A stretch of 32,010 bases of DNA. Source: Clostridia bacterium. Lineage in GTDB: Bacteria; Bacillota; Clostridia; CAKSNL01; HGM11501. Below are positions 2,522 through 30,006 of this stretch, one piece after another; position 1 is the stretch's first letter; each line of letters begins with the position of its first letter. Position numbers and translations under genes: made by a program. The notes under the pieces are model-generated. The model saw nothing but the letters and a program-made list of their open reading frames with translations, did no database searches and was not told the origin of the DNA. The DNA lies in NCBI GenBank assembly GCA_045601965.1, contig JAZSAR010000216.1, positions 1-32,010 on the forward strand. The letters run 5' to 3'.

Positions 2522-2553
2522 AAAAAAGTGGCTGCAACACAGCCACTTTTTTT
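2522..2553 (+). terminator. rho-independent terminator after the Dabb gene
   Basis: The stem GTGGCTG (2528..2534) pairs with CAGCCAC (2540..2546) and is followed by a run of seven T. Confidence 0.7.
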
Positions 2554-2561
2554 ATGCATAG

Positions 2562-2593
2562 AAAAAGTCCCCGAGTTTCCTCGGGGACTTTTT
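2562..2593 (-). terminator. rho-independent terminator of the giant minus-strand gene (palindromic, could act in both directions)
   Basis: An 8-bp GC-rich stem, GTCCCCGA (2567..2574) with TCGGGGAC (2581..2588), is flanked by A and T runs. It sits immediately after the TAA at 2596..2598. Confidence 0.75.
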
Positions 2594-2595
2594 AA

Positions 2596-5500
2596 TTATT
2601 TGAGATTCAAGAGTCTCTGAAGCATTGTAACTGCTTCTGCCTTTGTAGCGTTAGCCTTGGGACCGAATGTACCATCGGGATAACCGTTGATAATTCCCTT
2701 GTCAGCTGCCCAGTTAACCTGGTAGTTTGCATATGTTGCAATTTCTGCCTGGTCAGCAAAGCCTGCTTCCTTGGTAATTGTCCAATCTTGACCCATAAGT
2801 GTTGCATAACGGTAAATCATTGTAGCCATCTGCTCACGTGTGATGTTCTCATAAGGAGCAAAGGTGGTTTCTGATGTACCCTGTGTGATTCCGCTCTTAA
2901 CTGCCCAAGCTACTGCATTTGTGAACCAGTCGCCAACGTTAACGTCGGTGAAGTTGTGTGCACCGTCAGTAGTCTGACCGGACATTAAGTAGAGAATCTG
3001 ACAGAATTCAGCTCTTGTAATGCTCTTGTCGGGCTCAAACTTGCCGTCTGCTGTACCGTTTACAAGGTAAGCTACATACATTTCACCGATGGTCTTTTCA
3101 CCCCAGTGACCTGCGATGTCGGAAAGCTCGCTTGCGCTTCTTATTCTTCTGTAATAGGGATAAAGTGTTACGTTTTCAATTACACCGGTATTTGCATAAG
3201 GTACTGTAAATGCCTCGTCAAGATACCAGCCGATGAAGTCGTAGCCTTCCTTAGCTGCGGGATCTGCAACTACTGTGCCGGTTGCAGCCTTATGAGTGCC
3301 GATACCAACCAATGTGATTGTGTGCTGGTTAACATTTGTACCTGTTCCAACGCCGCCACCGATAAGACCTGTACCGCCGGAAGAAGAAGATCCACCGCCA
3401 CCGCCGCCGTAAGAAGGTCTCTTTGTGCCTTCGTCATCGTCGTCCTTTTCTTTACCTTCCCAAACAGCTGTGAATGTTACATCCTCTGCAGGCATTGTGT
3501 ACTTCTTACCTGCTGCGTAAATTTCTCCGTCAACAGAGCATCTCCAACCATCGAAGGTGCTGCCTGTAAGCTTAAGAGTATTATTAGCAAGAGTTACCTT
3601 TTCGCCTGCTGTATAAGAACCGCCTGCAGGAAGATTTCCTGTTGCACCGTTTACATCATCATATGTTACTGTGAATACGTCAACGCCTGCTGCAACTGCA
3701 AGGATTTCGATGTTGCCCTTAACGTTCTTAACAACGATTTCACCTGTAGCTGAATCGTAGGTGTAGTCCTGACCTTCCTTAAGTTCAGCACCGTCCATAA
3801 TAACGGTAATTTCTTCGGGAAGTGCTTCTCCCTCATTGGGAACAAGAGTGATTTCTGCGCTTTCACCGTAAGGTACCTTTGTTTCTTCGATTTCAGCTTC
3901 AATCTTCTTAAGGTCTGTTGTAATCTTAGCAGTACCTGCTTCGATTGCAGCAAATTCAACTGTTACTGTTGCATCGCCGAAGAGATCGTCGATTTCATAT
4001 TCCTGGGATGCAGAACCTGTGTAGGTAATGTCACCTGTAAGGAGATTTTCTGTTATAATCTTTTCGGTGAATACGATTTCGCCGATTGTGCAATGGCTCT
4101 TTGTTGCGCTTGCGAAGGTTGAGTAAATTTCAAACTTGATACCGTCGATATAGCCTACATCTGCAAGAGCTATCATATCGGTTATATCATTCTGATTTGT
4201 GTTGCCTTCTGCAAGAAGTACATCGTAGTTTGCGCCACCGTCTGTTGTACCCCAAACCTTATACTGCTTAACCTTCTGACCTGCATTGTAAGCTGAGCCG
4301 TCAGAGTTAAGTCTTCTTGTATGAGTCATTTCGGAAATCATCATAGGCTCATCGAATACGGCTGTAATCCAGTAAGGACCGTCGGAAAGCAGATGAGTGG
4401 GGTTGGGAGAACCGGTTGTCTTTGTTTCGTATTCGGAATGCCAATAGGTTTTGTCATTTCCGTCAAATGCTTTGGTTACGGGTTCCATTGCATTGGTTGC
4501 ATCGAATTCCCAATCCTTCTTGTCGGTAACGCGAACATACTTAACGTCATCTTCGCCCTTACCTTCAAGTGTCCAGCCAGCGGGCTCATAGCCTGCTGCG
4601 CCTTCAGCTACGAATACAAGGTTTTCGTGTCTTCCTACCATGGAGCCTGATGCAACTTCTTCTTCAACCTCTTCACCTGTTGCCATATCAGTGTATCTTA
4701 CAACAGCCTTGAGTGTTCCGTTTTCGCCTGCAGAATAGTTTACTTCATATTCTTCAGCTTCAGCAATTGTTACGGGAACGAGTATGTCCTTACCTACGGC
4801 AAAGCCTACGGAAAGAACTATTTCGTCACCTACATTGTAACCGCCGTCGATGAAGAAGTACTTGGAAATTGTGAAGGATTCTTCGTCGCAGAAGTAGTAA
4901 GCGGAATTTACGGGTACTAAAACGTCTTCTCCGTCTTCTTCTGTTACGATAGAGATTGTGCCGAGTGTGATGGAGTCATTCCATTCAACATTGAATGTAA
5001 GGTCTTCAAGTGTTGCCAGGCTGTATGTTGCTGCGCCGGGCTTGATGTCTGCTGCCTTAAGGTCTGCATATGCGCTGGAAGGCTCATAGAGACAGATTTC
5101 TTCAAGACCTATGGGCTGCCATGCACCGTTCTTGGTGGGATATACTCTTACATATCTTGCACTTACATTTGTGGGAACGCCGTCAACGATGAACTTCATA
5201 TCATCGAATGCGTTTCTGTTGTAGTTAAGGCTGTCAAGGTTTCCTGCACCGAAGGTCTGGATATCGGACTTAACCCAGTTAATACCGTCGTTGGAAACTG
5301 CCATATAACCTTCCTTGATGGTTGTGAAGTACTGTCTTACACCGCCGTCAGCCCAGATTCTGTGGTAGAGTCTTACACCGGAGAACTCGTGAGGAATCTT
5401 ATAGTCAACCTCGAAGTAACCGGGAGCATCGTTCCAGATTGCACTTGTGCCGCTGGGGCTGTAAATCATAAATGTATCGTCGTGCTTTAATGCTGTATGA

Positions 5501-8500
5501 GCCCAGTCGCTGTTGGTAAGTGCTGATCCGTCAGACTTGGTTGTTACCTTTCTGTTGGTGATTGTAGCGATATTACCGCTTGCAACACCGGAAACGATTC
5601 TTGCTTCGTGATCGAAGTGGTAAGGTGTTACTTCCTGGGGGAACATCTTCTTGGAGAAGTCCATATACTTAACAGTAACGGATCCAACCTTACCTGTGGA
5701 GGTTTCGATTGCAAGAACTACATCGCCTTCAGTTGTAATTGTATTAAGAGTAGCTGCCTTAATTACGATTGTATCTGTTTCAGCATCATACTCATACTGA
5801 GAAGCTGTAAGGGTTGTAGTGCCAAGAACAACCTTGGAGATTGTTGTATCACCGATATCCTCGATGGAAATTTCGATTTCCTCATCTGTTGCATTAATGT
5901 CCTTCTTGAATACTGTCTCGCCTGTTACAGCAAGAGTGGGCTTTAAGAAGTGAATTGTATCAGCAGTTGTATGAGTAATGTCTGCCATCTTGATTCTGAT
6001 ATAACGGCTGTTTGCATTTTCTGTAAACTTCATTGTGTAAGCACCGGGTGTGCCGGATGCCTTACCTGTGTAAAGAACAGTCCATGTTGCATAGTCGTCA
6101 GAACCGGATATTGTTACGTTACCCCAGTCAGCGCTGTTTGCACGGGATACATAACGGATACCGCCAACTTCTGTTATAGCAGTTCCCATATCGATGTCGA
6201 TATAGTGAACACCTGTGCCGGAAGGAGCGTCACCTAAACCATTTACAAATGTGGAGTGCCAGTTCTGTACATCCTTCTTGTTTACGGCTGCCTTGAAGAA
6301 TGTATTTGCCGCATGCTGGTTACCTGAATCCATACGTACAGCCCATTCGGGGTTTACTGCAACTTCGTCTGCAAGGAAGGTTGTTGTAACCTCGCCGTTT
6401 GTCTTTATCCAGTCGGAGAAAATGTTAACTGTATAAATCTTTTCAGAATCGTCCTCGAAGGTTACCTTAACTTTAAGTGCATACGAACCTTCAGCAGGAA
6501 GTTTTTCATAAGCAATCTTGTTGATTGCACGTCTGAATGCTGTTCTATTCATTACGATAGATGTTCCTGATGCTGTAAATTCAACAGATGAACCGTCAAC
6601 AATGGATACATCCTTTACATCAAGACCTGAACCGTTGTAAAGAGATACTTCGTAAGTACCATCAGCGCTGCTTGCCTTTGCAAGGTAATAATCAGACTGA
6701 GAAAGGTCTTTTACGATAATCTTTGCTTCTACAACTTCGCCGGAAGAGAAGGATACACTTGCAGTGTATTCGCCGATTGCAAGAGTGCCTAAGAAGTCAG
6801 CCTTAAAGGTGATTCCCTTTACGCCGTCAAGAACATAGTCTGTTCCTGCGGTAAGCTCTTCGCCTTCAACCTTAACGGATGTAATTTCATATACGTTGTC
6901 GGAATTGAACTTTCTTACAGCATCTTCAATGTCTTCAGAAAGGTCAACGTTGATGTCGCCGCCAACAATTCTTGTGGAAGCATCAAGGAATACGATTTCG
7001 TGAGTGAACATAAAGCTGTGTGAATTCATATTCTGATAACTGTCAACGTCAACTCTTGCATAACGGTAGTTTGCATTGTCCTGAAGGTCAACCTGTGCTG
7101 TCTTTGAGTTGTTGCCGGAAATGCTTCCGAGCTTAGTCCATGTAACAAGGTCATTTGAACCGTAGAGGCTTACATCTACCATATTATAGTTCTTATCTGT
7201 GATGCGTACGCCGGCAAACTTTGTTGCCTTGCCGAAGTCAACCCATGTTGAGTAGGGACCCATTGCACGGGCAAAGTGCTGTTCGCCCTTTTCTGCACCT
7301 GTTTCATCATAATATGTTGATGTCCAGGACTGGGAGTTTGTAGCATCGCCGTAGTTACCGTTGAACCAGTTTGCAGCTGCATGAGCAAGGGATGCACCGC
7401 CGTTTACTGTTACCTGCCAGTCTGTGGGTGTGATTCCGTCAGCATCTGCTGCTGCAAGAGCACCGTTTACTGCTTTCCAGGTATAGTTTGCATTAAGAAC
7501 GATTTCCTTGGTTGTGCCGTCGGAAAGAGATACTTCAACAACGTGCTTTCCGGGGCCGTTATTTGTGATTTCACGAACGAAGAAGCCGTTGAAGGTGTTT
7601 TCTGTTACTTCGTCACCTACTGCGATGCCGAGAGTAGCATTTGCTCTTCTGAACTTCATGTAGTTGCCGCCGTTTTCGTGGCTTGTGATACTGTTCTGAG
7701 TGGATGAGTAGAGCCACTTTCTGTGCTCTTCGCTCTTATAGTAGTTACCGCCGAGGGTAAGTGTGATTGTGCCGTCACCGTTTGTTACAGCCTTCCACTC
7801 GTCAGCAGTGTTTGTTACAGCCTCGCCGTTGTACTTTAAGCCTGTAACAGTTACATCGTTAGCCGCTGTGTAAAGCTTGTATTCAAGTGTTGCATAACCA
7901 AGCTTACCGCTTGCAGAATCGGTAGGATCAATGCTTCTTACAAGACCTGCTAAAGCAGCTTCTGCCTTTTCAAGGTCTGCAATATTGATTGTTGCCTTAT
8001 CTGTATCAGAAAGAGATTCGTAAATTTCACGAAGCTCTGCTACTGCTTCAGCATCGTCAGCTGTTACTTCGGAAGCGGGAAGCTCTGCAATCATATCGTT
8101 GAGCTCAGCTCCTGCGAGTGCAAGCCAAGCAGCTTCTGCAGCCGTTAATACTTCATAGTTTTCTACTGCTGCCTGAACAGCGGGGCTTAATGCATCGTAT
8201 GCCTTACGAGCAGCATCGATTGCAGTTTTGCTTTCCATTATGATGGGTGTGCCGATTGCATTAATTAAGGTTTCAACAGCTTCAGCCTGAGCTGCAAGTG
8301 CTGTTGTGATTTCAGAAGGAGTCTTTGTTTCAACGCCTGCTGCGGGATTAAGAAGTCTTACTTCTTCAAGTGCCCAGTGAGCATCGAGACCTGTAGCTGT
8401 TGCATGAGATAATGTACACTCAACCTTAATATAACGTGCCTTTACGTTATATGCTGTTCCACCGAACTTAATTTCAGGAATTGCAGCTATAACAGCATTT

Positions 8501-11500
8501 GTTGCTGTAGATTTATCTGCAGAAATCCAGTTTTCTCCGTCTTCAGAAACGTAAATGTAACCTTCCTTGAAGTTCTGGTTTCCGTTTACTCTCTGATAGA
8601 GACGGATTCCTGCGAATTCATAAACCTTACCAAGGTCATACTTAAGATATACAGTATCGCCGTTTGCTCCGCCGATGCAGAAGTCGTGGTGAAGCTGTCT
8701 TGAAGAAACACCGCCGCCGGGAGCACCGAGGCTTATGAACTCATCACGGGTGATATAGTCACCGTCCATAATTATGCCGCCGCGGTCTGTTCCGTGCTTA
8801 ACTGTATCAGCCGCGCCTGCCTTAGTAACATAAGTTGCGGCAGTACCCATGGGATAGCTCATAGAAACTTCGTCATTGGGGAAGGTAACCTTGGGAGCAA
8901 CGGGCTTTAATACCTGAAGCTCTGTAATGTTTGTATAGGATGTATTTCCGTCAATGCCGGAAACAACGATAAACTTAATACCCTTGAATTTGTTGTTTCT
9001 TCCCTGTGCGAGATAAGCTTCCTTATGTTCTTCCTTGGTTGCGGATGTGAAGCCAAGCTTTGTATCGCCAAGAATGTCAACCCAGGTGGTTCCGTCGTAA
9101 GTACCCTGCATCTTTATAGTGTTTGCAGAAGCACCGCCCTGTACTGTTCTGGGGAATACTCTTACGCCGCCAACTTCCATTTCCTTATCAAAGATAATGG
9201 TAACGGACTTGTCGCCGTCAACTGCTGAATGCCAGCAGTTACCCATATCACCGTAAACTGTGCCGTCGTAAAGCTTTGTTACATTGTGAGTTGCACTGAA
9301 CTGGCTTCCTGCGGTCCATGTCCAGTCTGTGGGATTTTTGTAGTAGTCATCAAGTGAATCCAAAGCGCTCTTTGTCGCTTCCTTAAATTCAGCAACGGTA
9401 AGAGCCTCCTTGCCCGCAACGGGATCGATAAGTCTTAATTCGGATACGGACCAGTGCTGATTTGAATCTGCTCCGCCTGTCTGAACTGCTTCAAGCTTGA
9501 TATAACGTGCTTTGATGTTTTCGTTTACGCCCTTTGCAAGAGCCTTTGCATCGAAGAATAAGTCTGTGCCGGCACCTTCTGAAAGCTCAGCCTGTACCCA
9601 GTCAGTTCCGTTGTCGGATACATAGATATAACCCTTTGTAACGGACTGTGAGCTCCATACATTACCTTCAGCATTCTTTCTTGCGTATGCTCTGATACCG
9701 GAGAAGGTCTGCTCTGCACCAAGGTCAATGGTGAGCCATGCAGACTTTGAATCTGCAGGATAAATTGCATTGTTTATTTCAGCATGGTTGTTTGCTTCGG
9801 GAAGGATATTGTCTGTAAGAAGACCAAGGTTTGCCATAGTCTTTCCTGCTGTGGAGCCGCTCTCAATCTTCCATACGGGATAGGTTGTAAAGTCATCATC
9901 TTCGAAGGGTGATGTGTATTCTTCGGGCTTTAATATCTGAAGCTCAACAATGTTGGTGTGAGCGGTTGTGCTTCCGCTTAAGTTCTTTTCAACAACGTAG
10001 CGGATACCCTTGAACTTATTGTTAAGCTCGCCGCTTAAGAGGTTTGTGCCCTGCCATACACCGTCGTCTGTTGTAGCGTCATCATCTGTGCCGCCCTTAA
10101 GGCCTGTGCTTAAATCGTCAGCAGCAACGAACCAGTTTTCACCGTCATAGGTTGCTTCAATTCTTACAACGCCGGGGTTACCGCCGTACTGACGGACATT
10201 GTTTGTGGAGTCGTGACGACCGTAAACTCTGAATCCGCCAACATCAATTGCGGTTTTGAACATTACTGTAATTGTTCTCTGTGCTTCTGTAACGGGGCTT
10301 GTTGCAGAAGAATGCCAGTAGCTGCCGTTATCGTCCGCACCAATTGTTCCGTCAGCCTTAACGTTGTCTGTAACACCGTCAAATGCATCTGTAACGGGAG
10401 AACCTGCGTTCCATTCGGAGCCTGCTACCATAGAATCGAAGTACTTGGAAGGATCGTAATAATCAAGAGAATCTTCGGGAATGGTAGTCCCTTCAGCCTT
10501 TTCCTTGAAGCCTGTAACTGTTACTGTGTCAAGAGAGTCATCTTCCTTCACAAGTAAAAGCTCCTGAATAGACCAGTGTGCGCCGTTTGTCTTGCTTATT
10601 TCTACCTTTATATAACGCGCAGTTACGTTGTAAGCTGTTTCCTTTGCCTTTAAGGGAGATTCTGTATATACATCATTTGTAGATGCATACTTTGCCATTG
10701 CTGCAGAGTTATTGGGAACTCCGACAGATTCATCAAAGGTCTTACTTGTTGAAGCCCATGTATCAGCATGTTCTTCTGCTGCTGCCCAATCTGTTCCGTT
10801 ATCGGAAACGTAAATTGTTACGTTCTTCACGGACTGGTTGGGCTGTCCCCATCTGCCGAAGATTCGTACGCCGGAGAAGGTGTATGCCTTACCAAGGTCA
10901 ATTTCCATCCATGCCTTGTCGCCTTCTTCTTTAAATACATTGTCCATCTCAACGTGGGGATCGCTGTTTGCAGCACCTGTGTAGGGATTATAATAGCCTT
11001 CAGCTTCGTTTACGAACTGATAGATAGTCTTATCAAAGAGACCGCCGAGAGGTCCGCCTGTTACACCCTGAGTGGAGTTTCTTGCAACAACTGCGGGAGT
11101 TGTATCAAACCAGATAACATCATCAGCAAAAGCATAACCCTTCTTGGGCTTTAATACCTGAAGCTCACAGAAGCAGGTGTGTTTGTCTGTTGCATTGGAT
11201 ATGTTTTTATCAACCTGGAACTTAACAGCCTTGTATGCAACGCCTGTCTGAACTAAAAGTTCAACGCTCTGTTCTGTAGTGCTGTATGTGATTTCAGTGC
11301 TGGGAAGAATTTCTTTAAATGTTGTTCCGTCAGTAGATGCTAAAACAGTTACCATTTTGGGATTTCCGCCCTTGTTATCAAAACGGGGGAATATTCTGAA
11401 GCCGCCGATTTTCTGCGCTTCGGTAAATGTAACTGTAACAGTTCTGTTTTCTGCTGTTGCACCCGCTGTGGGACTTGTATGCCAGTATGCACCGTCATCA

Positions 11501-12099
11501 GTTGTAGCGGTTGTTGCCTGCCATATGCCGTCGAAAAGGTTACCAACGGGCTTCCAGTCACCGCCATAGCCGGAGGGGCTTGTTGCTGTAAACCAAGCAC
11601 TCTGGAGGTAATAATCTCTCTTGGCTTCTGCAAGAGCGGGATCATATTCTTCTGCAGTAATTGTATCAAGCTCTTCATCAGCATCAAGCATAATGATTTC
11701 TTCAATATCAAACTGACCGTGATTATTTACAGTTGTAACACTGAATTTGATATAACGAGCTTCAACGTTTACAGCTTCGCCTTCAAATTTAAATCCTAAA
11801 TCACCGTACTGAGGTGTAACCTCTGTTGTACGGGTTGTGGTTGAATTACCAAGCATGCCCCAGGTTTCGCCGTCTTCGGAAACCTGAATTTCAAGGGCTG
11901 TTGCCTTTCTTGCCTTCATACCTCTTGCCTTATGGTCGTCCATAAGTCTGATACCGGAGAAGGTTTTAACAGCGCCCAGGTCTATCTGAAGAGTCGTTGC
12001 ATTAGTACCCTGATCTGCAATCCATCCCATTGCACCTTCGGTAGCACCGCTGATTGTGGGGAATACGTCATAGTCAGCATTTGTGGATGCACCGGTCAT
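2596..12099 (-). CDS. giant SLH-anchored cell-surface protein, main portion (3,167 aa as called from the first ATG). It contains about 11 F5/8 type C (discoidin, CBM32-like) modules, Ig-like spacers and an Ala-rich helical region. The C-terminal part has Listeria-Bacteroides-type repeats, a Gly/Ser linker and three SLH domains.
   Basis: Uninterrupted 9.5 kb ORF. Recurrent discoidin hallmarks are present: (F/Y)DG...(Y/C/N)WHS, FSGIR/GGFR/GGVR, S.DG..W, ARYIK... and HW...E..L. The C-terminus shows three SLH-like repeats (DIAGHWGEKTIGEMY.., FTDVNVGDWFTNAVAWAVKSGI.., FADQAEIATYANYQVNWAADKGII..). There is no signal peptide at this N-terminus. The reading frame stays open upstream to the TGA at 12340. 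Confidence 0.9.
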   Translation of the reverse strand: MTGASTNADYDVFPTISGATEGAMGWIADQGTNATTLQIDLGAVKTFSGIRLMDDHKARGMKARKATALEIQVSEDGETWGMLGNSTTTRTTEVTPQYGDLGFKFEGEAVNVEARYIKFSVTTVNNHGQFDIEEIIMLDADEELDTITAEEYDPALAEAKRDYYLQSAWFTATSPSGYGGDWKPVGNLFDGIWQATTATTDDGAYWHTSPTAGATAENRTVTVTFTEAQKIGGFRIFPRFDNKGGNPKMVTVLASTDGTTFKEILPSTEITYSTTEQSVELLVQTGVAYKAVKFQVDKNISNATDKHTCFCELQVLKPKKGYAFADDVIWFDTTPAVVARNSTQGVTGGPLGGLFDKTIYQFVNEAEGYYNPYTGAANSDPHVEMDNVFKEEGDKAWMEIDLGKAYTFSGVRIFGRWGQPNQSVKNVTIYVSDNGTDWAAAEEHADTWASTSKTFDESVGVPNNSAAMAKYASTNDVYTESPLKAKETAYNVTARYIKVEISKTNGAHWSIQELLLVKEDDSLDTVTVTGFKEKAEGTTIPEDSLDYYDPSKYFDSMVAGSEWNAGSPVTDAFDGVTDNVKADGTIGADDNGSYWHSSATSPVTEAQRTITVMFKTAIDVGGFRVYGRHDSTNNVRQYGGNPGVVRIEATYDGENWFVAADDLSTGLKGGTDDDATTDDGVWQGTNLLSGELNNKFKGIRYVVEKNLSGSTTAHTNIVELQILKPEEYTSPFEDDDFTTYPVWKIESGSTAGKTMANLGLLTDNILPEANNHAEINNAIYPADSKSAWLTIDLGAEQTFSGIRAYARKNAEGNVWSSQSVTKGYIYVSDNGTDWVQAELSEGAGTDLFFDAKALAKGVNENIKARYIKLEAVQTGGADSNQHWSVSELRLIDPVAGKEALTVAEFKEATKSALDSLDDYYKNPTDWTWTAGSQFSATHNVTKLYDGTVYGDMGNCWHSAVDGDKSVTIIFDKEMEVGGVRVFPRTVQGGASANTIKMQGTYDGTTWVDILGDTKLGFTSATKEEHKEAYLAQGRNNKFKGIKFIVVSGIDGNTSYTNITELQVLKPVAPKVTFPNDEVSMSYPMGTAATYVTKAGAADTVKHGTDRGGIIMDGDYITRDEFISLGAPGGGVSSRQLHHDFCIGGANGDTVYLKYDLGKVYEFAGIRLYQRVNGNQNFKEGYIYVSEDGENWISADKSTATNAVIAAIPEIKFGGTAYNVKARYIKVECTLSHATATGLDAHWALEEVRLLNPAAGVETKTPSEITTALAAQAEAVETLINAIGTPIIMESKTAIDAARKAYDALSPAVQAAVENYEVLTAAEAAWLALAGAELNDMIAELPASEVTADDAEAVAELREIYESLSDTDKATINIADLEKAEAALAGLVRSIDPTDSASGKLGYATLEYKLYTAANDVTVTGLKYNGEAVTNTADEWKAVTNGDGTITLTLGGNYYKSEEHRKWLYSSTQNSITSHENGGNYMKFRRANATLGIAVGDEVTENTFNGFFVREITNNGPGKHVVEVSLSDGTTKEIVLNANYTWKAVNGALAAADADGITPTDWQVTVNGGASLAHAAANWFNGNYGDATNSQSWTSTYYDETGAEKGEQHFARAMGPYSTWVDFGKATKFAGVRITDKNYNMVDVSLYGSNDLVTWTKLGSISGNNSKTAQVDLQDNANYRYARVDVDSYQNMNSHSFMFTHEIVFLDASTRIVGGDINVDLSEDIEDAVRKFNSDNVYEITSVKVEGEELTAGTDYVLDGVKGITFKADFLGTLAIGEYTASVSFSSGEVVEAKIIVKDLSQSDYYLAKASSADGTYEVSLYNGSGLDVKDVSIVDGSSVEFTASGTSIVMNRTAFRRAINKIAYEKLPAEGSYALKVKVTFEDDSEKIYTVNIFSDWIKTNGEVTTTFLADEVAVNPEWAVRMDSGNQHAANTFFKAAVNKKDVQNWHSTFVNGLGDAPSGTGVHYIDIDMGTAITEVGGIRYVSRANSADWGNVTISGSDDYATWTVLYTGKASGTPGAYTMKFTENANSRYIRIKMADITHTTADTIHFLKPTLAVTGETVFKKDINATDEEIEISIEDIGDTTISKVVLGTTTLTASQYEYDAETDTIVIKAATLNTITTEGDVVLAIETSTGKVGSVTVKYMDFSKKMFPQEVTPYHFDHEARIVSGVASGNIATITNRKVTTKSDGSALTNSDWAHTALKHDDTFMIYSPSGTSAIWNDAPGYFEVDYKIPHEFSGVRLYHRIWADGGVRQYFTTIKEGYMAVSNDGINWVKSDIQTFGAGNLDSLNYNRNAFDDMKFIVDGVPTNVSARYVRVYPTKNGAWQPIGLEEICLYEPSSAYADLKAADIKPGAATYSLATLEDLTFNVEWNDSITLGTISIVTEEDGEDVLVPVNSAYYFCDEESFTISKYFFIDGGYNVGDEIVLSVGFAVGKDILVPVTIAEAEEYEVNYSAGENGTLKAVVRYTDMATGEEVEEEVASGSMVGRHENLVFVAEGAAGYEPAGWTLEGKGEDDVKYVRVTDKKDWEFDATNAMEPVTKAFDGNDKTYWHSEYETKTTGSPNPTHLLSDGPYWITAVFDEPMMISEMTHTRRLNSDGSAYNAGQKVKQYKVWGTTDGGANYDVLLAEGNTNQNDITDMIALADVGYIDGIKFEIYSTFASATKSHCTIGEIVFTEKIITENLLTGDITYTGSASQEYEIDDLFGDATVTVEFAAIEAGTAKITTDLKKIEAEIEETKVPYGESAEITLVPNEGEALPEEITVIMDGAELKEGQDYTYDSATGEIVVKNVKGNIEILAVAAGVDVFTVTYDDVNGATGNLPAGGSYTAGEKVTLANNTLKLTGSTFDGWRCSVDGEIYAAGKKYTMPAEDVTFTAVWEGKEKDDDDEGTKRPSYGGGGGGSSSSGGTGLIGGGVGTGTNVNQHTITLVGIGTHKAATGTVVADPAAKEGYDFIGWYLDEAFTVPYANTGVIENVTLYPYYRRIRSASELSDIAGHWGEKTIGEMYVAYLVNGTADGKFEPDKSITRAEFCQILYLMSGQTTDGAHNFTDVNVGDWFTNAVAWAVKSGITQGTSETTFAPYENITREQMATMIYRYATLMGQDWTITKEAGFADQAEIATYANYQVNWAADKGIINGYPDGTFGPKANATKAEAVTMLQRLLNLK
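2599..3132 (-). other. region encoding three tandem SLH (S-layer homology) domains, the C-terminal wall anchor of the giant protein
   Basis: The last ~178 aa contain three repeats of the SLH pattern: an aromatic/W-containing helix followed by G...G.....F.P...(I/A)TR(A/E)(E/Q). Confidence 0.8.
8340..11700 (-). repeat. about three diverged ~1.1 kb super-repeats inside the giant gene, each encoding a B-type plus an A-type discoidin module
   Basis: The A-type module ends recur at roughly 1.1 kb spacing: (H)GQFDIEEIIML near 11690, HWSIQELLLV near 10560, HWSVSELRLI near 9440 and HWALEEVRLL near 8365. The B-type ends (ELQVLKP, ELQILKP, ELQVLKP) fall in between. Confidence 0.6.
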
Positions 12100-12339
12100 T
12101 AAGCCTTCGGTATAAAGTCCGTTATAGGTGGACGCAATATTACCCTGAAGGCCACCTGATACCTTTGTAACAGCAGCACCTTCAAGCTCAGTAAGATATG
12201 TAACACCGTCATTTTCTGCGGGAATGAGAGCCTTTGCTGTTACGCCTTCTACATTTGTTACAGCAAAGTCCTCGGATGTGAGGGTGTCGTTTGCATCGTT
12301 TTCGTCAAGAAGAACGATTTCTTCAATTTCCCATTCGCC

Positions 12340-12993
12340 TCAGTTGTTAACTGCGGTTACGTTAAACTTAAAGTAACGTGCTTCTACGTTTACAGCTGCA
12401 GAGCTTTTCTTGAATACAAAGTCTCTGTATTTAGTTGTAAAGTCTTCATTTGTTGCATTGTCAAGGGCATACCAAAGCACACCGTCAGCGGATACTGACA
12501 GCGAAACGGTCTTTGCCTTTCTTGCGCTGTAATGTCTTGCTCTTGAAGAGTCATAAAGACGGATACCGGAGATAGTCTTCGCTGCGCCCATATCAACGGT
12601 AACTGTTGTCTTACCCGGCTGACCCATAAAGCCTGTGGGTGTTCCGTTGGACTCATAAAGTCCCTGGTCAGCATCACTTACGGTATACTTACCGTCGATA
12701 GTCTTTGCGATGTCGCCTTCTTTAGAGCCTGTGCTTACCTGGCTTACGCTTGCGCCGGTAAACTCGGTGAAGTATGTAACACCGTCACCTTCAGCAGCTT
12801 CAAATGAAGCCACGTCGGAGTTAGCCAAAAGCTCAACTTCCTCCTCCCCGTAAATTTCAACTAATTCGTCCTCGGAAACTTCCTCAATTGCAGGAATTTC
12901 CAGCACCTCTTCTGCGAAAGAGGTGATTGCTGCCGCAGGTGCCAATGTCATAATCATGCACAATGCGAGCAGTACAGATAAGATTTTTCTCAT
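12340..12993 (-). CDS. N-terminal fragment of the giant surface protein: signal peptide plus one discoidin module truncated in its last strand (217 aa)
   Basis: Strong RBS AGGGAGGAAA upstream of the ATG at 12991..12993. Signal peptide MRKILSVLLALCMIMTLAPAAAITSFA-EE. The module carries TISGIRLYD...SADGVLW...EARYFKFNVTAVNN and then TGA. It is in the same frame as 2596..12099. Confidence 0.85.
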   Translation of the reverse strand: MRKILSVLLALCMIMTLAPAAAITSFAEEVLEIPAIEEVSEDELVEIYGEEEVELLANSDVASFEAAEGDGVTYFTEFTGASVSQVSTGSKEGDIAKTIDGKYTVSDADQGLYESNGTPTGFMGQPGKTTVTVDMGAAKTISGIRLYDSSRARHYSARKAKTVSLSVSADGVLWYALDNATNEDFTTKYRDFVFKKSSAAVNVEARYFKFNVTAVNN

Positions 12994-13107
12994 GATGTTT
13001 CCTCCCTTTGCTTCTTATCATATTGATAGTATTTTTTTGCACGATTTCAAGATGCGGAGACTCGTCAGCCGACAATCCACGCATTATGATATCATACTGT
13101 ATCATAT

Positions 13108-13137
13108 ATAATACATCAAAATGCCCCCCTATGTCAA
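13108..13137 (-). promoter_or_regulatory. sigma-A-type promoter of the giant gene
   Basis: On the minus strand: TTGACA (13132..13137), an 18-nt spacer, then TATTAT (13108..13113). This gives a ~110-nt leader before the ATG at 12993. Confidence 0.5.
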
Positions 13138-14495: not shown

Positions 14496-14530
14496 AAAAA
14501 GGATGCTTGCATATGCAAGCATCCTTTTTT
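14495..14530. terminator. bidirectional rho-independent terminator shared by the convergent genes
   Basis: A perfect 24-bp palindrome, GGATGCTTGCAT/ATGCAAGCATCC (14501..14524), is flanked by an A run and a T run. Confidence 0.8.
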
Positions 14531-17012
14531 ACTTCGTTATTGTAACTGTCTGTGCCTCTCCGTTCCAGGAAACGTTATAGCCCAAAATTTCCGATACGAA
14601 TCTTACGGGTATAAAGGTACGGTTTTCCGATATCACCGGGGGATTTAAGAGAGTATACATCATCTTTCCCTTAGGGTAGCGTGTATCAGACACCCACACG
14701 ATATTGTTCCATATCTGAAGCTCGATTGTCATAACCTCGGTTTTAAGGGTGATTTTCTCCTTTGCACCGTCCCAGGCGATTTCTGCGCCCATTTCCTCAA
14801 CCAATCCTCTTAAGGGGATTAATGTTGAGCCGTTTACGATGAAGGGCGCAACGTCCAAAACCTTTTCGCTTTCGGTCTTCTCCTTACCCTTTACAGCCTT
14901 TATGGTTTTATCGCCGATTTTAAGGGTATAGGTTTCGCTTGCTTCTTCCGTTCTTTCCTTTCGTGCCGTTCCCGACTCAAAGAAGGAAATGTCCGTTGCA
15001 GAAACTCTGCCTGCATTATATTCCACAATTTCGATGTCAAAATACTTAACCTCGATTTCCTCGTCAAACACAACTACCTTTTCAGAAATATCGTCAGCAA
15101 AGGTGACTTCCTTTTCAGAAAATTCAAGACCATCAACTGACCAGCGCAAGATTGCCTTGTACCATAAGCCGTGTTTATCCTCCGACCGTCTCGGAAGATA
15201 ATGGAATTCCTTAATCTTATATACCTCGCGGAACTCAACCTCGATGGTTACGGGGCGTGTGCCTGTGGTTTCCGTCTGCCATACGGTATCCGACCTTCCG
15301 TCAAAGGCTCTGTTTATAGTGTTATTGTTCCACACAGGCTCTGTGCAGTAGCCCGTCGTCTCCTCCGTCGGAATCTGATAGAGTCTGTGAAGCACCTCAT
15401 AGTCCTGATATGCGGAAAGTGCCACGGTTTCAAGGTCGTCCCTTCCCTTTACGGCACTAAACTCCGCAAAGCTTCCTATGTTACCGTTTCCTCCCTTTAT
15501 TATAAGGCGTATTCTTTTAGCCTCGATATTTCCCACAAGGCGGAAATTTCTTATTGCACCGAATGCCGCCGTCTGCGAAAAGGCGATGGACTCGTTTTCA
15601 AGTATAGTGTAAAATGCGCCGTCATCCGAGCCTGACGCCTGAAGGTCAAAAAGCTTTACGTCGCCGGAGTGGGAATCGGTTCTCGGCAAAATTACAAATT
15701 CCGAAATTTTTGTAAGCTCGGGAAGTGTGAAGTCAATGGTATAAGGCGGCTTCTGAAGATTTTTCGCCTTGCCGTCTTCTACCTCATAGTAGGAATGCCA
15801 GATGGTCTTCTGTTTTCCGTCAATTAAGTTTTTCGCAGGTGCACCCTTAAATTCCGAGTCCGCAGTAGCCTTCCAGCCTGCCTTCGGCACTTCGTTTTCA
15901 ACTGTGAAGTCGGAGGCGGGCTCTGCCGGTTTTTCCTCCTTTGGCTCGTCCTTTGCAGATTCGCCTTTTTCGCTTCCTTTAATAAACTCAAGCTCACCGC
16001 AGGTTGCATAGCCTGTTCCGTAGGAATCGGTTATTTCAATTTTTACGCCGAGAAGCTCCATATCGCCCCAGGAGAGTGTCTGTGCTGCGTGGCGCATAGC
16101 ATCTGACGAAAGCTTGTATTTAAATATTTCCTTATATTCTTCTCCGTCGGTTGTTCCGTAAACGGTCATCGCCCTGACTGTTCCCGATTCAGAGTCGCTT
16201 CGGGGTGTGTAGATAAGTCCCGACACGGTTAACGGGCTTACGAAGTTTACGGTGATATAGTGGGGCCACTTTTCAACATCCGTAAGCTTTCCGTCTACCA
16301 CACCGTAGCGGGTATGCCAGAAGGTAGAAGGATTTCCGTCAAATATTTTCTTTATTGTTCCACCAAGGTCGGAAGAAGTTTCAACCAGCCAACTTGAATC
16401 ATAGGTGATTTTTTCATATGGAGCTTCTTCTTCCTTTTTGCCGTCAGCGGTAATTGTACCGGGAGTTACAACGGCGTTTTCAGCCTTTGCCTCTCCCCCT
16501 GTTAAAAACTGAAGCTCACCGCAGGAGGCATAGCCCGAGCCGTAGGAATTGGTTACTTCAATTTTTATGGCGCTCATTTCCTTATTGCCCCAGGAAATGG
16601 TTTTGGAATCGAAACGGCCGGCATCGCCTGAAAGCTTATATTCCGCAATTTTTGTAAAGGTTTCCCCGTCGGTGGATGAGTATACATTCATCGCCCTTAC
16701 GGTTCCCGAATCAGAATCGCTTCGGGGGGTGTAGATAAGTCCCGACACGGTTAACGGGCTTATAAAGTTTACGGTTATGTAGTGAGGCCATTTTTCAACA
16801 TCCGTAAGCTTTCCGTCAACCACACCATAGCGGGTGTGCCAGAAGGTTGATGCATTACCGTCAAATATCTTATTTATTGTTCCGCCAATGTCGGAGGTGG
16901 TTTCAACAAGCCAGGAAGAATCATAGGGGATTTCTGTTTCCGCCGCAGAGACGGAAACGAAAAGGGATAAAGTCATCAATAAGCATAATGTAAGTGCAAA
17001 TATTTTTTTCAT
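14529..17012 (-). CDS. secreted protein with four F5/8 type C (discoidin, CBM32-like) modules and a C-terminal Cu-amine-oxidase-N-like domain (827 aa)
   Basis: RBS AAAGGAGGCGG and signal peptide MKKIFALTLCLLMTLSLFVSVSA-AE. The pattern FDG...T.WH(T/S).Y ... G..Y.PR.D ... S.DG..(F/Y) ... E(L/F).F occurs four times. The C-terminus (PFIVNGSTLIPLRGLVEEMGAEIAWDG...TFIPVRFVSEILGYNVSWNG) fits the Cu_amine_oxidN1-type stalk domain common in Firmicutes wall proteins. Confidence 0.9.
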   Translation of the reverse strand: MKKIFALTLCLLMTLSLFVSVSAAETEIPYDSSWLVETTSDIGGTINKIFDGNASTFWHTRYGVVDGKLTDVEKWPHYITVNFISPLTVSGLIYTPRSDSDSGTVRAMNVYSSTDGETFTKIAEYKLSGDAGRFDSKTISWGNKEMSAIKIEVTNSYGSGYASCGELQFLTGGEAKAENAVVTPGTITADGKKEEEAPYEKITYDSSWLVETSSDLGGTIKKIFDGNPSTFWHTRYGVVDGKLTDVEKWPHYITVNFVSPLTVSGLIYTPRSDSESGTVRAMTVYGTTDGEEYKEIFKYKLSSDAMRHAAQTLSWGDMELLGVKIEITDSYGTGYATCGELEFIKGSEKGESAKDEPKEEKPAEPASDFTVENEVPKAGWKATADSEFKGAPAKNLIDGKQKTIWHSYYEVEDGKAKNLQKPPYTIDFTLPELTKISEFVILPRTDSHSGDVKLFDLQASGSDDGAFYTILENESIAFSQTAAFGAIRNFRLVGNIEAKRIRLIIKGGNGNIGSFAEFSAVKGRDDLETVALSAYQDYEVLHRLYQIPTEETTGYCTEPVWNNNTINRAFDGRSDTVWQTETTGTRPVTIEVEFREVYKIKEFHYLPRRSEDKHGLWYKAILRWSVDGLEFSEKEVTFADDISEKVVVFDEEIEVKYFDIEIVEYNAGRVSATDISFFESGTARKERTEEASETYTLKIGDKTIKAVKGKEKTESEKVLDVAPFIVNGSTLIPLRGLVEEMGAEIAWDGAKEKITLKTEVMTIELQIWNNIVWVSDTRYPKGKMMYTLLNPPVISENRTFIPVRFVSEILGYNVSWNGEAQTVTITK
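15975..16925 (-). repeat. intragenic tandem duplication with a 522-bp (174-codon) period, covering discoidin modules 1 and 2 of the 827-aa protein
   Basis: For example, agataagtcccgacacggttaacgggctta at 16211 recurs at 16733. The protein copies are YDSSWLVETTSDIGGTINKIFDGNASTFWHTRYGVVDGKLTDVEKWPHYITVNF.. and YDSSWLVETSSDLGGTIKKIFDGNPSTFWHTRYGVVDGKLTDVEKWPHYITVNF.. Confidence 0.85.
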
Positions 17013-17025
17013 TTTGCCGCCTCCT

Positions 17026-19767: not shown

Positions 19768-19799
19768 TGCTATTCCCTTCCTTTCAGTTTGATAATATA

Positions 19800-19828
19800 A
19801 TTATACATTATCCCGTGCTTTTTGTCTT
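19800..19828 (-). promoter_or_regulatory. candidate promoter for the 17026..19767 / 14529..17012 operon
   Basis: On the minus strand: AAGACA (19823..19828), a 17-nt spacer, then TATAAT (19800..19805). The -35 element is weak. Confidence 0.3.
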
Positions 19829-19943
19829 TATCATCAATTCCGACGTATTTATCATTTATTCCACGAAAAATTTTTCTTTTCTTTTTGGGAAAAATGTGGT
19901 ATTATATATTAATGGAAGAAATTTTGAAAGGAGAAGTGTCATT

Positions 19944-27273: not shown

Positions 27274-30006
27274 TTATTTTTCTATGGTAATTGTCTGTGT
27301 TGCGCCATCCCAGCCTACTGTGTATCCGAGACGCTCGGATACAAATCTTAAGGGAATGAAGGTTCTGCCGTTTTCAATTCTGGGTGCAACGGGAGAGGTA
27401 TATCTTATGCCGTTTACCCATACACGGTTATTTTCAATCTGAAATTCGATGGCTGTTCCTTCGGCTTCCACGGTGATTTTCTTGTTTTCGCCGTGCCAGG
27501 TAACTTCAGCTCCCATCTCCTCAAAGAGACCGCGAAGGGGAATCATTGTTGTTCCTTCAACAATAAAGGGCTCAACATCTATAGTCTTTACTCTGCCCTC
27601 TTCGCCCTTTGTTACCCTGATATCCTTTGAGCCTATCTGAAGAGTATAGCATTCCTTTTCCCCGGAAAGGCGGGCAAGCTGATCATTTTCGCTTTCATAA
27701 AACTGAACGTCCGCACAGGTGGCGTGGGCACTTGCCTTGCTGCCTCCGTCATTGGTTGTAACTAAGATGTCTATGCGGAAATATCTTGTGGTAATAGGCT
27801 CATAGAAGGGAATCCTCATAAAGTTGAAGGACTTATACTGGGTGGGGTTAAGAACAAAGCTATCCACAAAGTCATAATTTTCTCCGTCCGCTGATGTGCT
27901 TATTTCAAACTCAACCCAGTGTCCGCTTAAGAATCCCTGACCTCTGGGCATAAAGCCGAAGCCCGAAAGAGTGTATTCCTTTCCGAGGTCATACTCAAGA
28001 TAAGCGGGCATTACCTTTTTATTGAAGCCCTCAGTTGAGCCGTCCTCGTTTCTGTACTGAGTGTGCCATACGGAATATTCATTCCGGTCAATGGTCTTGA
28101 TTGCAGTTGAGTGCATATCGTTGGCGTTTTCAAAGGGATAGGGCTGTTCGCTACTTGCCTCTACCTTAACCTCGCTTCTGTCTATGGGAAGCATTTTATA
28201 GTCGCCGTAGTTATCTCTCATTTCCGCCACAGTTACTGTCTCTTTATAAAGAGTGGGCTTAAGCACGCGGATTTCCGATGCAACGGCATAGTTACTCATA
28301 GAGTCCACAATAACAAGCTTTATTGCCTTTGCTTTAACATTTCTGCTCATTACAAGCTCGCAGGGCGTTCTTCTCTGGTCCTTTGTTGTGGTTCCGCCGT
28401 AGGAGAAGGTGAAATCCTCAACCGCGGGATAGAAGTTTTCGCCGTCATCAGACACATATAAGCTTACGATTTTGAATATACCCGCACTGCTCTGGGATTC
28501 GTCTCTCGGGTAATATCTGATACCGGAAACCTCGGTTTCCTCCGGGAAGGTTATGATATAGTCAAAGGGGTTCATATCATGGGAAACAATTGTTCCGTTC
28601 TCAACCACATAAGCAGAATGCCAGAAGGTTTTAAGATCGCCATCCATAGCAAGCTCCGGCTTTGTCATTGCGCTGGATGCTGTTACCTTCCAGTCGGATT
28701 CGGGGGTCATTTCATCCTCTTCATACTCTGCCTTTGCCGTTTCTGTGGGCTTTGTTTCTTCCTTGGTTTCTTCCTTTTTACCGGAGGCTGATGCTCCGCC
28801 GATTCCTGTGGTTGCATCAAATTCCGTTGCGGTAAGCTTAACAGATGATACCTCGGCTGTCTTTAATTTTTCGTCACTCTTAAGGAGTGAAAGCTCTGCC
28901 ATTGTGCCGAAATCGCTGACGCCTTCGGTAATTATAAGCCTTACAGATTTCACCTTTACGTTGGAATCAAACTTAACTGTTCTTCCTGTTTCACGGTCGG
29001 AAAATGAAGGGTTGTAGGAAAGCTTTACATCACCAAGCTTTGTATAGTTTGCACCGTCAGAAGATATTTCAATCCCCATTTCCTTAACAACACCTGCGGT
29101 GCTTCCGCCAAGTCTGGGATAGTAGCGGATACCGGAAATTTCCGTTACCGAAGGAAGGGTAAGCTCGAATGTATAGGGCAGGGGGTCCTTTTCCGTAATG
29201 GTTGAGCCTTCTGCCTTATAGCCAGAATGCCAGATGGTATCAATGTTTCCGTCAATGGCGTTTTCTGCCTTCTGTGCTATGCTGGAAGCAGAGACTGTCC
29301 AGCCGGATTTATCGGTAATTTCGTCCTTTACCTTACCGCTGTCGGCACCTGCACCGCCAACTGCCGCAGAGCCTGTTTCCTTTGCGATATTCTGTGTTTC
29401 AACTCCGTTCTCCGTTGCGGGGATTACGGTTTTTGCAAGCTTAACAGATTTCACATCTGCGCTTGAAAGACTATCCTTCTTTTTAAGAAGGGAAAGCTCT
29501 GCCATTGTACCGAAATCGCTGTAACCCTTTATTACGTCAAACTTAAGGGACTTTATCTTTACATTTTCCGTAAAGTCAACGGTTTTTCCTCCCTCACGGT
29601 CGGAATATGCGGGATTGTACTGAAACTTAACCTGTCCCATTTCGGTGTAGTTTTCACCGTCTTCGGAAATGTATACTATGATATCGTAAAACGTACCTGC
29701 CACACTTCCGCCAAGACGGGGGTAATAACGAAAGCCCGAAACCTCGGTTACATCGGGAAGTGTAAGGGTAACTGTATAGGGCATGGGGTCCTTTGCCGTA
29801 ACCTGACCGCCCTCTGCGGTGTAGCCCGAATGCCAGATGGTGTCTAGATTGCCGTCGATGGCGTTTTCGATTTTCTGAATCTGGCTTGTTGCCTTGATAA
29901 TCCATCCTGTTTTTTCGATTTCGTCATCCGACGCAAAGGCTGTAAGGGCGAAAACAGATGAAAGAATTATTGATAATGCGAATATTAAAGATAATATTTT
30001 TTTCAT
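27274..30006 (-). CDS. secreted protein with four discoidin modules and a C-terminal Cu-amine-oxidase-N-like domain (910 aa); paralog of 14529..17012
   Basis: RBS AAGGAGGCGG and signal peptide MKKILSLIFALSIILSSVFALTAFA-SD. The pattern (I/M)DG(N/D)..T.WHS.Y ... SG(F/I)RYYPR ... S.DG.N(Y/F) ... E(L/I)..L occurs four times. The C-terminus (PFIVEGTTMIPLRGLFEEMGAEVTWHG...TFIPLRFVSERLGYTVGWDG) aligns by eye with the 827-aa protein. Confidence 0.9.
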   Translation of the reverse strand: MKKILSLIFALSIILSSVFALTAFASDDEIEKTGWIIKATSQIQKIENAIDGNLDTIWHSGYTAEGGQVTAKDPMPYTVTLTLPDVTEVSGFRYYPRLGGSVAGTFYDIIVYISEDGENYTEMGQVKFQYNPAYSDREGGKTVDFTENVKIKSLKFDVIKGYSDFGTMAELSLLKKKDSLSSADVKSVKLAKTVIPATENGVETQNIAKETGSAAVGGAGADSGKVKDEITDKSGWTVSASSIAQKAENAIDGNIDTIWHSGYKAEGSTITEKDPLPYTFELTLPSVTEISGIRYYPRLGGSTAGVVKEMGIEISSDGANYTKLGDVKLSYNPSFSDRETGRTVKFDSNVKVKSVRLIITEGVSDFGTMAELSLLKSDEKLKTAEVSSVKLTATEFDATTGIGGASASGKKEETKEETKPTETAKAEYEEDEMTPESDWKVTASSAMTKPELAMDGDLKTFWHSAYVVENGTIVSHDMNPFDYIITFPEETEVSGIRYYPRDESQSSAGIFKIVSLYVSDDGENFYPAVEDFTFSYGGTTTKDQRRTPCELVMSRNVKAKAIKLVIVDSMSNYAVASEIRVLKPTLYKETVTVAEMRDNYGDYKMLPIDRSEVKVEASSEQPYPFENANDMHSTAIKTIDRNEYSVWHTQYRNEDGSTEGFNKKVMPAYLEYDLGKEYTLSGFGFMPRGQGFLSGHWVEFEISTSADGENYDFVDSFVLNPTQYKSFNFMRIPFYEPITTRYFRIDILVTTNDGGSKASAHATCADVQFYESENDQLARLSGEKECYTLQIGSKDIRVTKGEEGRVKTIDVEPFIVEGTTMIPLRGLFEEMGAEVTWHGENKKITVEAEGTAIEFQIENNRVWVNGIRYTSPVAPRIENGRTFIPLRFVSERLGYTVGWDGATQTITIEK

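Follow-up and report, generated by a model that had tools for sequence, protein, structure and literature searches.

The locus considered here raises the question of what a giant and interrupted gene, built largely from discoidin modules, would do for the bacterium that carries it. The window, by which we mean the whole stretch of 32,010 nucleotides that was analysed, is a whole contig (JAZSAR010000216.1) of a metagenome-assembled genome (MAG) of a Clostridia bacterium (GCA_045601965.1); this MAG comprises 2.09 Mb in 284 contigs, with 89.85% completeness and 2.7% contamination. The giant gene occupies 2596..12993 on the minus strand, and its translation gives 3,465 codons followed by a TAA stop, with one internal TGA. 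The frame of about 3,465 codons described in an earlier note on this DNA, made by eye, is thereby confirmed, and intact orthologues encode proteins of 3449-3494 amino acids (aa). With translation table 11, the one frame is split into two open reading frames (ORFs), 12340..12993 (217 aa) and 2596..12099 (3167 aa).

The best explanation, to which we assign a probability of roughly 0.75, is that the intact gene encodes a Sec-exported, SLH-anchored and non-catalytic stalk with twelve discoidin/CBM32-like modules, which would bind a repetitive glycan with avidity. The domain content, the fold and a CsaB-type gene in the same genome support a multivalent, non-catalytic, glycan-binding surface protein, as the earlier note had suggested; sugar binding itself, the ligand, an extended fibre geometry and surface display are what we infer.

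Domain architecture

A Pfam search of the read-through product returned F5_F8_type_C in 12 stretches (325.5 bits), three SLH domains, two Flg_new and two CBM_X2 domains, and nothing else. Each domain named by eye in the earlier note, including the twelve discoidin modules, is matched by a hidden Markov model (HMM). When the modules are scanned one by one, 11 of the 12 exceed the gathering score of PF00754 (28.2 bits) singly, at 29-52 bits; segment-wise Pfam scans were reported to E<=0.1. The remaining module, D5, reaches 22.3 bits alone, which is below the cut-off, and is linked by phmmer to D3 at 8.9e-22. A self-BLAST of the whole protein yielded the identity high-scoring segment pair only, and the repeats were resolved instead by phmmer seeds and pairwise Smith-Waterman alignment.

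In these alignments, the B group (D3, D5 and D7) scores 169-228 among its own members and <=73 to all other modules. The order A-A-B-A-B-A-B-A proposed for the first eight modules stands, but the single A type on which it was based does not, as it divides into two subgroups, D1/D2 (348 to each other; subtype A') and D4/D6/D8 (164-194; subtype A''). D3-D8 form three B-A super-repeats of ~380 aa each. D9 and D10 pair weakly, D12 is nearest to the B group, and D11 is close to D4/D6/D8. As judged from these scores, the pattern of module repeats is far beyond what chance would be expected to give.

From the N terminus, and with all coordinates on the minus strand, the array starts with the two A' modules D1 (aa 62-233, 12295..12810; PF00754 37.3 bits, Smith-Waterman score 348 to D2) and D2 (aa 255-440, 11674..12231; 51.8 bits). 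These are followed by the alternating series of D3 (subtype B, aa 455-622, 11128..11631; 43.2 bits), in which the motifs FDG..WHS..GGFR..PR..ELQVLKP are found, D4 (subtype A'', aa 640-818, 10540..11076; 45.7 bits), assigned also from a structure model and Foldseek, D5 (subtype B, aa 842-1030, 9904..10470; assigned from its 22.3 bits and the phmmer link to D3), D6 (subtype A'', aa 1040-1192, 9418..9876; 48.3 bits), D7 (subtype B, aa 1213-1372, 8878..9357; 34.0 bits), and D8 (subtype A'', aa 1385-1552, 8338..8841; 47.9 bits), the latter a hypervariable cassette.

The central part consists of an Ala-rich helical region (aa 1560-1685, 7939..8316) without a Pfam match, and a lineage-restricted, β-rich domain without family, here called unk1 (aa 1686-1857, 7423..7938), for which no Pfam, NCBIfam or PDB match was found. 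AlphaFold2 (AF2) models the Ala-rich region as helices with predicted local distance difference test (pLDDT) values of 85-93, in accordance with the helical segment that had been placed at about 7930..8325 (aa 1556-1688). The divergent discoidin module D9 (aa 1858-2008, 6970..7422; 29.3 bits) is followed by a CBM_X2 Ig-like domain, X2a (aa 2015-2100; PF03442 39.6 bits), which together with an Ig-like spacer, Ig2 (aa 2105-2205), covers 6379..6951. Next are the divergent D10 (aa 2213-2352, 5938..6357; 36.2 bits), a second CBM_X2-like Ig domain, X2b (aa 2355-2450, 5644..5931), with a PF03442 score of 25.4 bits (E 1.5e-5) that is below the cut-off, and D11, a discoidin module near subtype A'' (aa 2478-2642, 5068..5562; 33.2 bits, Smith-Waterman score 124-132 to D6 and D8). 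Two small β domains at aa 2650-2821 (4531..5046) look by eye, from the sequence pattern, Ig-like and InlB-B-repeat-like, and have no Pfam match at E<=0.1 apart from noise. The last discoidin module, D12 (aa 2822-2988, 4030..4530; 30.2 bits), is divergent with a WHS motif, and precedes a pattern-based Ig-like spacer without family or Pfam match (aa 2989-3100, 3694..4029). Among unk1, X2a, Ig2, X2b, the other family-less stretches (unk2-4) and the Flg_new segments, hhalign gave no convincing links, with a best non-trivial probability of 37%. That unk1 might be an X2-like domain with an insertion is a guess by eye, and unproven.

The C-terminal part has a first Flg_new/InlB B-repeat (aa 3101-3180), a Gly/Ser linker (aa 3181-3225) and a second Flg_new repeat (aa 3226-3284), together at 3142..3693, followed by three tandem SLH domains that would serve as wall anchor (aa 3285-3465, 2599..3141; PF00395 111.6 bits in three stretches). 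The B-repeat region matches PF09479 in two stretches (61.1 bits, above the cut-off) and PF18998 (29.9 bits), in line with the Listeria-Bacteroides-type repeats that had been recognised by eye. In the genome search, the SLH matches fall at 2632-2760, 2824-2952 and 3001-3123; the Gly/Ser linker and the three SLH domains are thus found where they had been expected.

Fold of the discoidin modules and the search for a hidden enzyme

The B-A unit D3-D4 was modelled with AF2 from an alignment of 19 sequences, and the model has a mean pLDDT of 72.9 with values of 85-92 in the cores. A Foldseek search with the unit identified the tandem CBM32-1/-2 of Clostridium perfringens ZmpB in complex with GalNAc (PDB code 7jnf, E 8e-13), and further matches included a tandem F-lectin (3cqo), mucin-active enzymes of Akkermansia (8ayr), neuropilin b1b2 and the factor VIII C domains. 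As single domains, the modules match CBM32-5 of CpGH89 with bound galactose or Tn antigen (4a41/4a44; TMt 0.76, rmsd 3.5 Å) and BT3015C with bound galactose (7blg). On the basis of the model, the distorted β-sandwich (jelly-roll) fold typical of discoidin domains can be considered established for the B-A unit. The discoidin/CBM32-like nature of the modules, as originally proposed, therefore stands both on the PF00754 HMM and on the likeness of the D3-D4 model to tandem CBM32 structures.

Profile searches against the PDB place the B-type modules nearest to the CBM32 of NagJ/GH84C (2j1a, 2j7m, E 9e-7), and the A-type modules nearest to neuropilin b1, lactadherin, the galactose-binding domain of the NedA sialidase, and YeCBM32. 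The CBM32 chains in the PDB are matched only remotely by profile (E 9e-7 to 4e-3), and because all of these matches are remote, ligand specificity cannot be transferred from them.

A different possibility is that the discoidin array belongs to an ordinary carbohydrate-active enzyme with several binding modules and a catalytic domain that has escaped detection. Four stretches without family (aa 1686-1857, 2105-2205, 2650-2821 and 2989-3100) could in principle accommodate such a domain, and characterised CBM32 arrays are usually joined to glycosidases or peptidases, as are all of the top bacterial Foldseek matches. However, each of these stretches is at most 175 aa long and β-rich or Ig-like by pattern. 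Pfam (E<=0.1, every segment), NCBIfam and the PDB sequence and profile searches revealed no catalytic family, which agrees with the absence of a catalytic domain stated in the earlier note. Nor do the orthologues and the distant relatives P0008-P0010 have catalytic Pfam domains. For unk1, a profile search among 1.84 billion cluster representatives produced 9 matches; the five strongest were the orthologue P0007 and four proteins with discoidin modules (three of them also with CBM_X2), none with a catalytic domain, and strong unk1 homologues were thus seen only in discoidin/X2 proteins. The C-terminal third of unk1 weakly resembles cadherin/Big repeats, and in an AF2 model of aa 1560-1860 (7-sequence alignment) only the helical part is resolved. 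A hidden enzyme is unlikely on this evidence, and we regard an ordinary multi-CBM enzyme as a highly unlikely description of the protein.

Proposed wall anchoring and mode of action

The SLH region matches the SLH structures of Bacillus anthracis Sap (PDB codes 3pyw/6bt4, E 3e-10). The MAG has ~24 SLH-bearing ORFs, and the giant gene is the only one that joins discoidin and SLH. Anchoring of the SLH domains to a pyruvylated secondary cell-wall polymer is plausible because the genome encodes one CsaB-type pyruvyl transferase (PF04230, 159 bits, G000:C232:474-1325).

At the N terminus, a Sec-type signal peptide, MRKILSVLLALCMIMTLAPAAAITSFA|EE, was read by eye at 12913..12993 (minus strand), with a positive n-region, a hydrophobic h-region and the c-region SFA|EE, and is near-identical across all orthologues in the alignment. 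In two metatranscriptome runs of related strains, contigs cover 2638-12906 as a tiling, and none extends into the intergenic region upstream of the gene. That the tiling stops before the intergenic region suggests transcription in vivo, and the gene is probably transcribed in these related strains.

We propose that the intact form is a Sec-exported, non-catalytic surface protein of ~3,450-3,500 aa, which would be tied non-covalently to the pyruvylated polymer through the C-terminal triple SLH module. The Gly/Ser linker, the pair of InlB-type B-repeats and a number of spacers of Ig-like or CBM_X2 type would make up the stalk, from which the short helical segment and the twelve discoidin β-sandwich modules (two A', three B-A'' pairs and four divergent singles) would project outwards. 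The protein is predicted to bind a repetitive glycan multivalently, with avidity as the driving force; the glycan could stem from host mucin, from plants or from another microbe, and binding may help the cell to adhere or to capture substrate at its surface. In bacteria, the overwhelming majority of discoidin modules bind carbohydrates.

Several points weigh against this proposal. The gene is interrupted in this assembly, and the strain may not make the protein. No module is nearer than E~1e-6 to any structurally characterised CBM32, and eukaryotic discoidin domains can bind lipids or proteins and not sugars. The ~170 aa of unk1 have AF2 pLDDT values below 50. The assignment of the signal peptide is a by-eye judgement, and the evidence for transcription consists of assembled Logan contigs of related strains, in which carry-over of DNA is possible.

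The in-frame TGA at codon 218

The internal TGA (12340..12342, minus strand) is codon 218 and lies at the end of D1, in the conserved C-terminal motif W-x-x-x-I-E-E-I. The 3,247 codons that follow it are thereby cut off from the signal peptide and the greater part of D1, and the next start codon, an ATG at 12099, would give a product without export signal. In all five full-length or near-full-length homologues (P0002, P0003, P0004, P0006 and P0007) the aligned residue is Trp; P0002 has 3449 aa (81% identity), P0004 3453 aa and P0006 3494 aa. At this position, a homologue reads '...VNSWGEWEAEEIVLLD', as compared with '...VNN*GEWEIEEIVLLD' in the window. Position 12340 is T in the window, and is C, which corresponds to a coding TGG, in the contigs of 6/6 public gut-metagenome runs that cover the site (X1, X3, X6, X7, X13 and the metatranscriptome X11). 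For the best of the public runs, the share of sampled words was 0.47-0.63.

One reading of the open frame is that TGA is decoded, either as Trp in a code 4/25-like manner, as selenocysteine, or by programmed read-through. The frame remains open for 3,247 codons after the TGA, and the residue aligned in the relatives is Trp, the one inserted by near-cognate UGA read-through. However, of 857 long ORFs in the genome, 228 (27%) terminate in TGA, the adjacent GH3 gene among them, and the giant gene itself contains 60 TGG codons. The MAG, which is incomplete, yielded no tRNA with a UCA anticodon. The relatives have TGG and not TGA at the site, and among the 150 discoidin matches listed for the genome, only the one in the giant gene has a stop inside the match. 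Decoding of the TGA can therefore be given next to no weight, and stop-codon recoding was rejected.

Since the relatives have TGG, and since TGA is a genome-wide terminator, the TGA is a private nonsense change or an error. On the sequence comparison, it is a private G-to-A change (TGG, Trp-218, to TGA) and not recoding. The interruption stems either from a recent null mutation private to the strain or from an error in the MAG consensus, possibly from a mixture of strains. The first of these would make the gene a real pseudogene in this strain, with the TGA fixed and only a secreted stub of 217 aa produced, and with a functional protein in sister strains. The assembly does carry the TGA, and single-base substitution errors are uncommon in Illumina consensus sequences. 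Individual strains often lose or inactivate large, variable genes for surface proteins, and the module deletions in the orthologous loci L002 and L005 (see below) demonstrate the evolutionary lability of this gene. Against a pseudogene, the rest of the 10.4-kb frame is fully open, so that inactivation would be very recent, and all six other runs have TGG; as none of the runs compared matches this exact strain, an assembly or strain-mixture artefact may account for the TGA.

The second alternative, an artefact in the MAG of an organism with an intact TGG gene, is favoured by the C at 12340 in every independent run that covers it, by the fragmentation, incompleteness and contamination of the MAG, and by the nature of the locus, a strain-variable mosaic in which assemblers mix alleles. 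A random consensus error that happens to make a stop is, on the other hand, unlikely a priori. We consider the pseudogene and the artefact equally probable, each at slightly less than even odds. Reading through the TGA, as was done in the earlier note, describes the intact or ancestral form of the protein, which may not be expressed from this assembly. In annotation, the TGA is best handled as an error or a private nonsense change, and not as recoding.

Orthologues and mosaic structure

Intact orthologues are found in loci L001 (3480 aa), L003 (3494 aa) and L004 (3453 aa), and in these three the same genes occur in synteny: a ~913-aa protein, a ~827-aa protein with four discoidin modules (4x-discoidin), the giant gene, and DAPDH downstream. 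L005 has the upstream pair in the same arrangement, and its contig ends just past the giant gene. The central helical and unk1 region was used as a marker, and strong orthologues were found in 5 of 12 genus genomes, while other genomes have more distant ones, 2,100-2,900 aa in length. P0008-P0010 (36-41% identity) have the same plan, with 5-7 discoidin modules, CBM_X2, Flg_new and three SLH domains. One genome of the set has three tandem ORFs of 2,100-2,400 aa that share the helical and unk1 centre (G002:C63:29423-44722).

Among the orthologues, modules are gained and lost, and whole cassettes appear to be exchanged between strains. The number of B-A units varies, as L002 lacks D3-D4, and L005 lacks D2 and D5-D6. 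In codon-aligned nucleotide comparison with L001, identity is 96-100% over most of the length, and drops in discrete blocks to 50-57% in D8, 48-66% in X2a-Ig2-D10 and 67% in Flg_new-1. The corresponding hypervariable cassettes are located at 8338-8841, 5938-6951 and 3454-3693, respectively. In the X2a-Ig2-D10 block, the window differs from all six orthologues (45-68% nucleotide identity), and the cassette is specific to the window allele. D8 exists in two allele types, with 50-57% nucleotide identity to L001/L005/L006 and 72-92% to L002/L003/L004, a distribution that cuts across overall relatedness. A metatranscriptome contig in run X14 has 8380-8888 (507 letters, the D8 block) replaced by 519 other letters.

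Switching of cassettes within the genome was considered as a source of this variation, and is unsupported, as tblastn detected no silent donor copies of the variable cassettes elsewhere in the MAG (best match 36% aa identity, on C260). Because donor copies are absent from the MAG, the variation looks like inter-strain recombination rather than programmed switching. The match on contig G000:C260 belongs to a 2197-aa ORF, in which one region is 36% identical to X2a-Ig2-D10.

Discoidin expansion in the genome and lineage

The relatives come from goat colon and other gut samples, and the sequence occurs in gut or faecal metagenomes of sheep, goat, bovine or unspecified origin; the lineage is apparently one of the ruminant gut. 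An HMM survey counted 163 discoidin modules in 50 ORFs, which amounts to 5.5% of the assembly, and the genome search gave at least 150 matches to PF00754 and ~92 to Cu_amine_oxidN1. The lineage thus spends ~5% of a ~2 Mb genome on discoidin arrays. Genomes of the same genus hold 20-227 candidate discoidin modules in 1.4-2.9 Mb, compared with 0-14 in most other families of the class, and by these candidate counts the expansion is lineage-specific. This genus-wide expansion is the more striking biology, of which the giant gene is the largest and the only SLH-anchored member.

Most of the other discoidin proteins in the genome have a length of 650-1050 aa, contain 3-5 modules and end in Cu_amine_oxidN1, and are often preceded by a protein of ~915 aa. 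This protein and a 4x-discoidin protein with a strong Cu_amine_oxidN1 tail form a two-gene unit that occurs twice in the window (14529-19767 and 27274-31825, both on the minus strand), and recurs on numerous further contigs. In every orthologous locus, the first of these units is found immediately upstream of the giant gene. Its ~915-aa partner, which in the window has 913 aa, gave no PDB sequence match, and in Pfam only a weak C-terminal match to Cu_amine_oxidN1. The paralogous arrays, for example those at 14529..17012 and 27274..30006, are secreted, and share the module family and the expansion with the giant protein. They differ in size (650-1050 aa), in having Cu_amine_oxidN1 instead of SLH, and in their association with the ~915-aa partner, whereas the giant gene has its own promoter-like site, and its A-type modules, which have few close relatives elsewhere in the genome, are rare outside it.

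The setting allows for a role in which the protein is not primarily a lectin, and instead acts as a wall-bound scaffold or coat on which proteins with Cu_amine_oxidN1 tails dock, or as a variable layer that protects, or serves as decoy, against phages or host antibody. The ~92 Cu_amine_oxidN1 matches have no known anchor, the giant protein is alone among the discoidin proteins in having SLH domains, and it is always found directly downstream of the 913-aa protein and the 4x-discoidin protein paired with it. Its cassette-wise hypervariability is, moreover, typical of surface proteins under diversifying selection. Against such a role, no cohesin/dockerin-like pair or evidence of interaction was found, bacterial discoidin modules have their strong bias towards carbohydrates, and diversification of ligand specificity explains the variability equally well. 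A scaffold or decoy role is therefore unlikely compared with the glycan-binding stalk.

With the glycan-binding stalk as starting point, a wider scenario can be outlined, which we regard as rather doubtful. In a genus whose small genomes (1.5-2.9 Mb) hold up to ~230 discoidin modules, the giant protein might be the wall-fixed centrepiece of a peculiar lectin lifestyle. It would serve as a very long, multivalent and strain-variable tether to a specific glycan surface, for example on host mucus, on plant particles or on the cells of protozoa or fungi, and this surface would be processed by dozens of pairs of an unassigned enzyme and a 4x-discoidin protein. The hypervariable D8, X2a-Ig2-D10 and Flg_new-1 would then reflect diversifying selection on ligand specificity, or escape from phages or antibodies, and the protein might also dock Cu_amine_oxidN1-tailed proteins in analogy to a scaffoldin.

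Relation to known proteins

Among structurally known proteins, the best structural and profile matches of the modules are the mucin-active multi-CBM32 enzymes of C. perfringens, i.e., ZmpB (7jnf), GH84C NagJ (2j1a, 2v5d) and GH89 CBM32-5 (4a41/4a44), which like the giant protein are secreted Firmicute proteins with tandem CBM32 sandwiches. The C. perfringens CBM32 modules bind Gal, GalNAc or LacNAc. Unlike the giant protein, with its 12 modules and no catalytic domain, these enzymes have a catalytic domain and 1-6 CBM32 modules, and no SLH anchor, and the similarity is remote (E 1e-6 or worse, ~12-19% identity).

Display of carbohydrate-binding modules through SLH domains is known from plant-biomass degraders with non-catalytic or CBM-rich surface proteins, such as the SLH proteins of Caldicellulosiruptor and the SLH-CBM enzymes of Paenibacillus or Thermoanaerobacterium, where the wall-displayed modules hold the cell on polysaccharide. 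Those proteins have modules of other families (CBM3, 9, 22, 28 and others), are smaller, and mostly carry glycoside hydrolase domains. B. anthracis Sap (3pyw, 6bt4) provides a comparison for the anchor, as it has a triple SLH module, which can be C- or N-terminal, and a CsaB-type gene is present here as well; the passenger is unrelated, and Sap forms a lattice, whereas the giant protein would be a modular lectin array. The factor V/VIII C1-C2 domains, neuropilin b1b2 and lactadherin have the same fold and belong to the same Pfam family, and neuropilin b1 and lactadherin are the best profile matches of the A-type modules. The ligands of the eukaryotic domains are phospholipids or peptides, and the relation to them, in evolution as in function, does not go beyond the fold.

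A literature search for architectures that combine discoidin/CBM32 with SLH returned nothing specific, and we know of no characterised protein that joins twelve discoidin modules and an SLH anchor without an enzyme domain. The parts (discoidin/CBM32, CBM_X2, InlB B-repeat and SLH) are known, as is the concept of SLH-displayed CBMs; the twelve-module, enzyme-free array of two subtypes with cassette-wise hypervariability is uncharacterised, and its relatives carry at most the database name 'discoidin domain-containing protein'. The giant protein offers a handy entry to what this uncultured lineage, apparently of the ruminant gut, binds, and new glycan specificities may be sought among its A', A'' and B modules. 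In addition, the swapping of cassettes from strain to strain constitutes a natural experiment on the diversification of lectin arrays.

Flanking signals and neighbouring genes

Upstream of the giant gene, and on the same minus strand, a promoter-like site, TTGACA-18-TATTAT, matches the consensus at 11 of 12 positions (13108..13137), and a GGGAGG ribosome-binding site, read from the sequence, is found at 13001-13006, 7 nucleotides 5' of the ATG. Two terminator-like hairpins (2522..2593, no strand assigned) are located directly 3' of the stop codon; these and the promoter-like site are consensus matches only.

A gene for a NagZ-like protein with a GH3 N-terminal domain (383 aa, 13344-14495, plus strand), which ends in TGA, separates the upstream pair from the giant gene in the window only. 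In its place, the orthologous loci have a gap of 0.5-1.3 kb, or a small GIY-YIG ORF in L005. In L004, a GH29 α-L-fucosidase-like gene is present downstream of the giant gene. A ParC/GyrA-like ORF of 795 aa at 19749-22136 (plus strand), with a TTG start, overlaps the end of the gene for the 913-aa protein; its homologues are 720-736 aa long, and the true start is probably located ~65 codons downstream.

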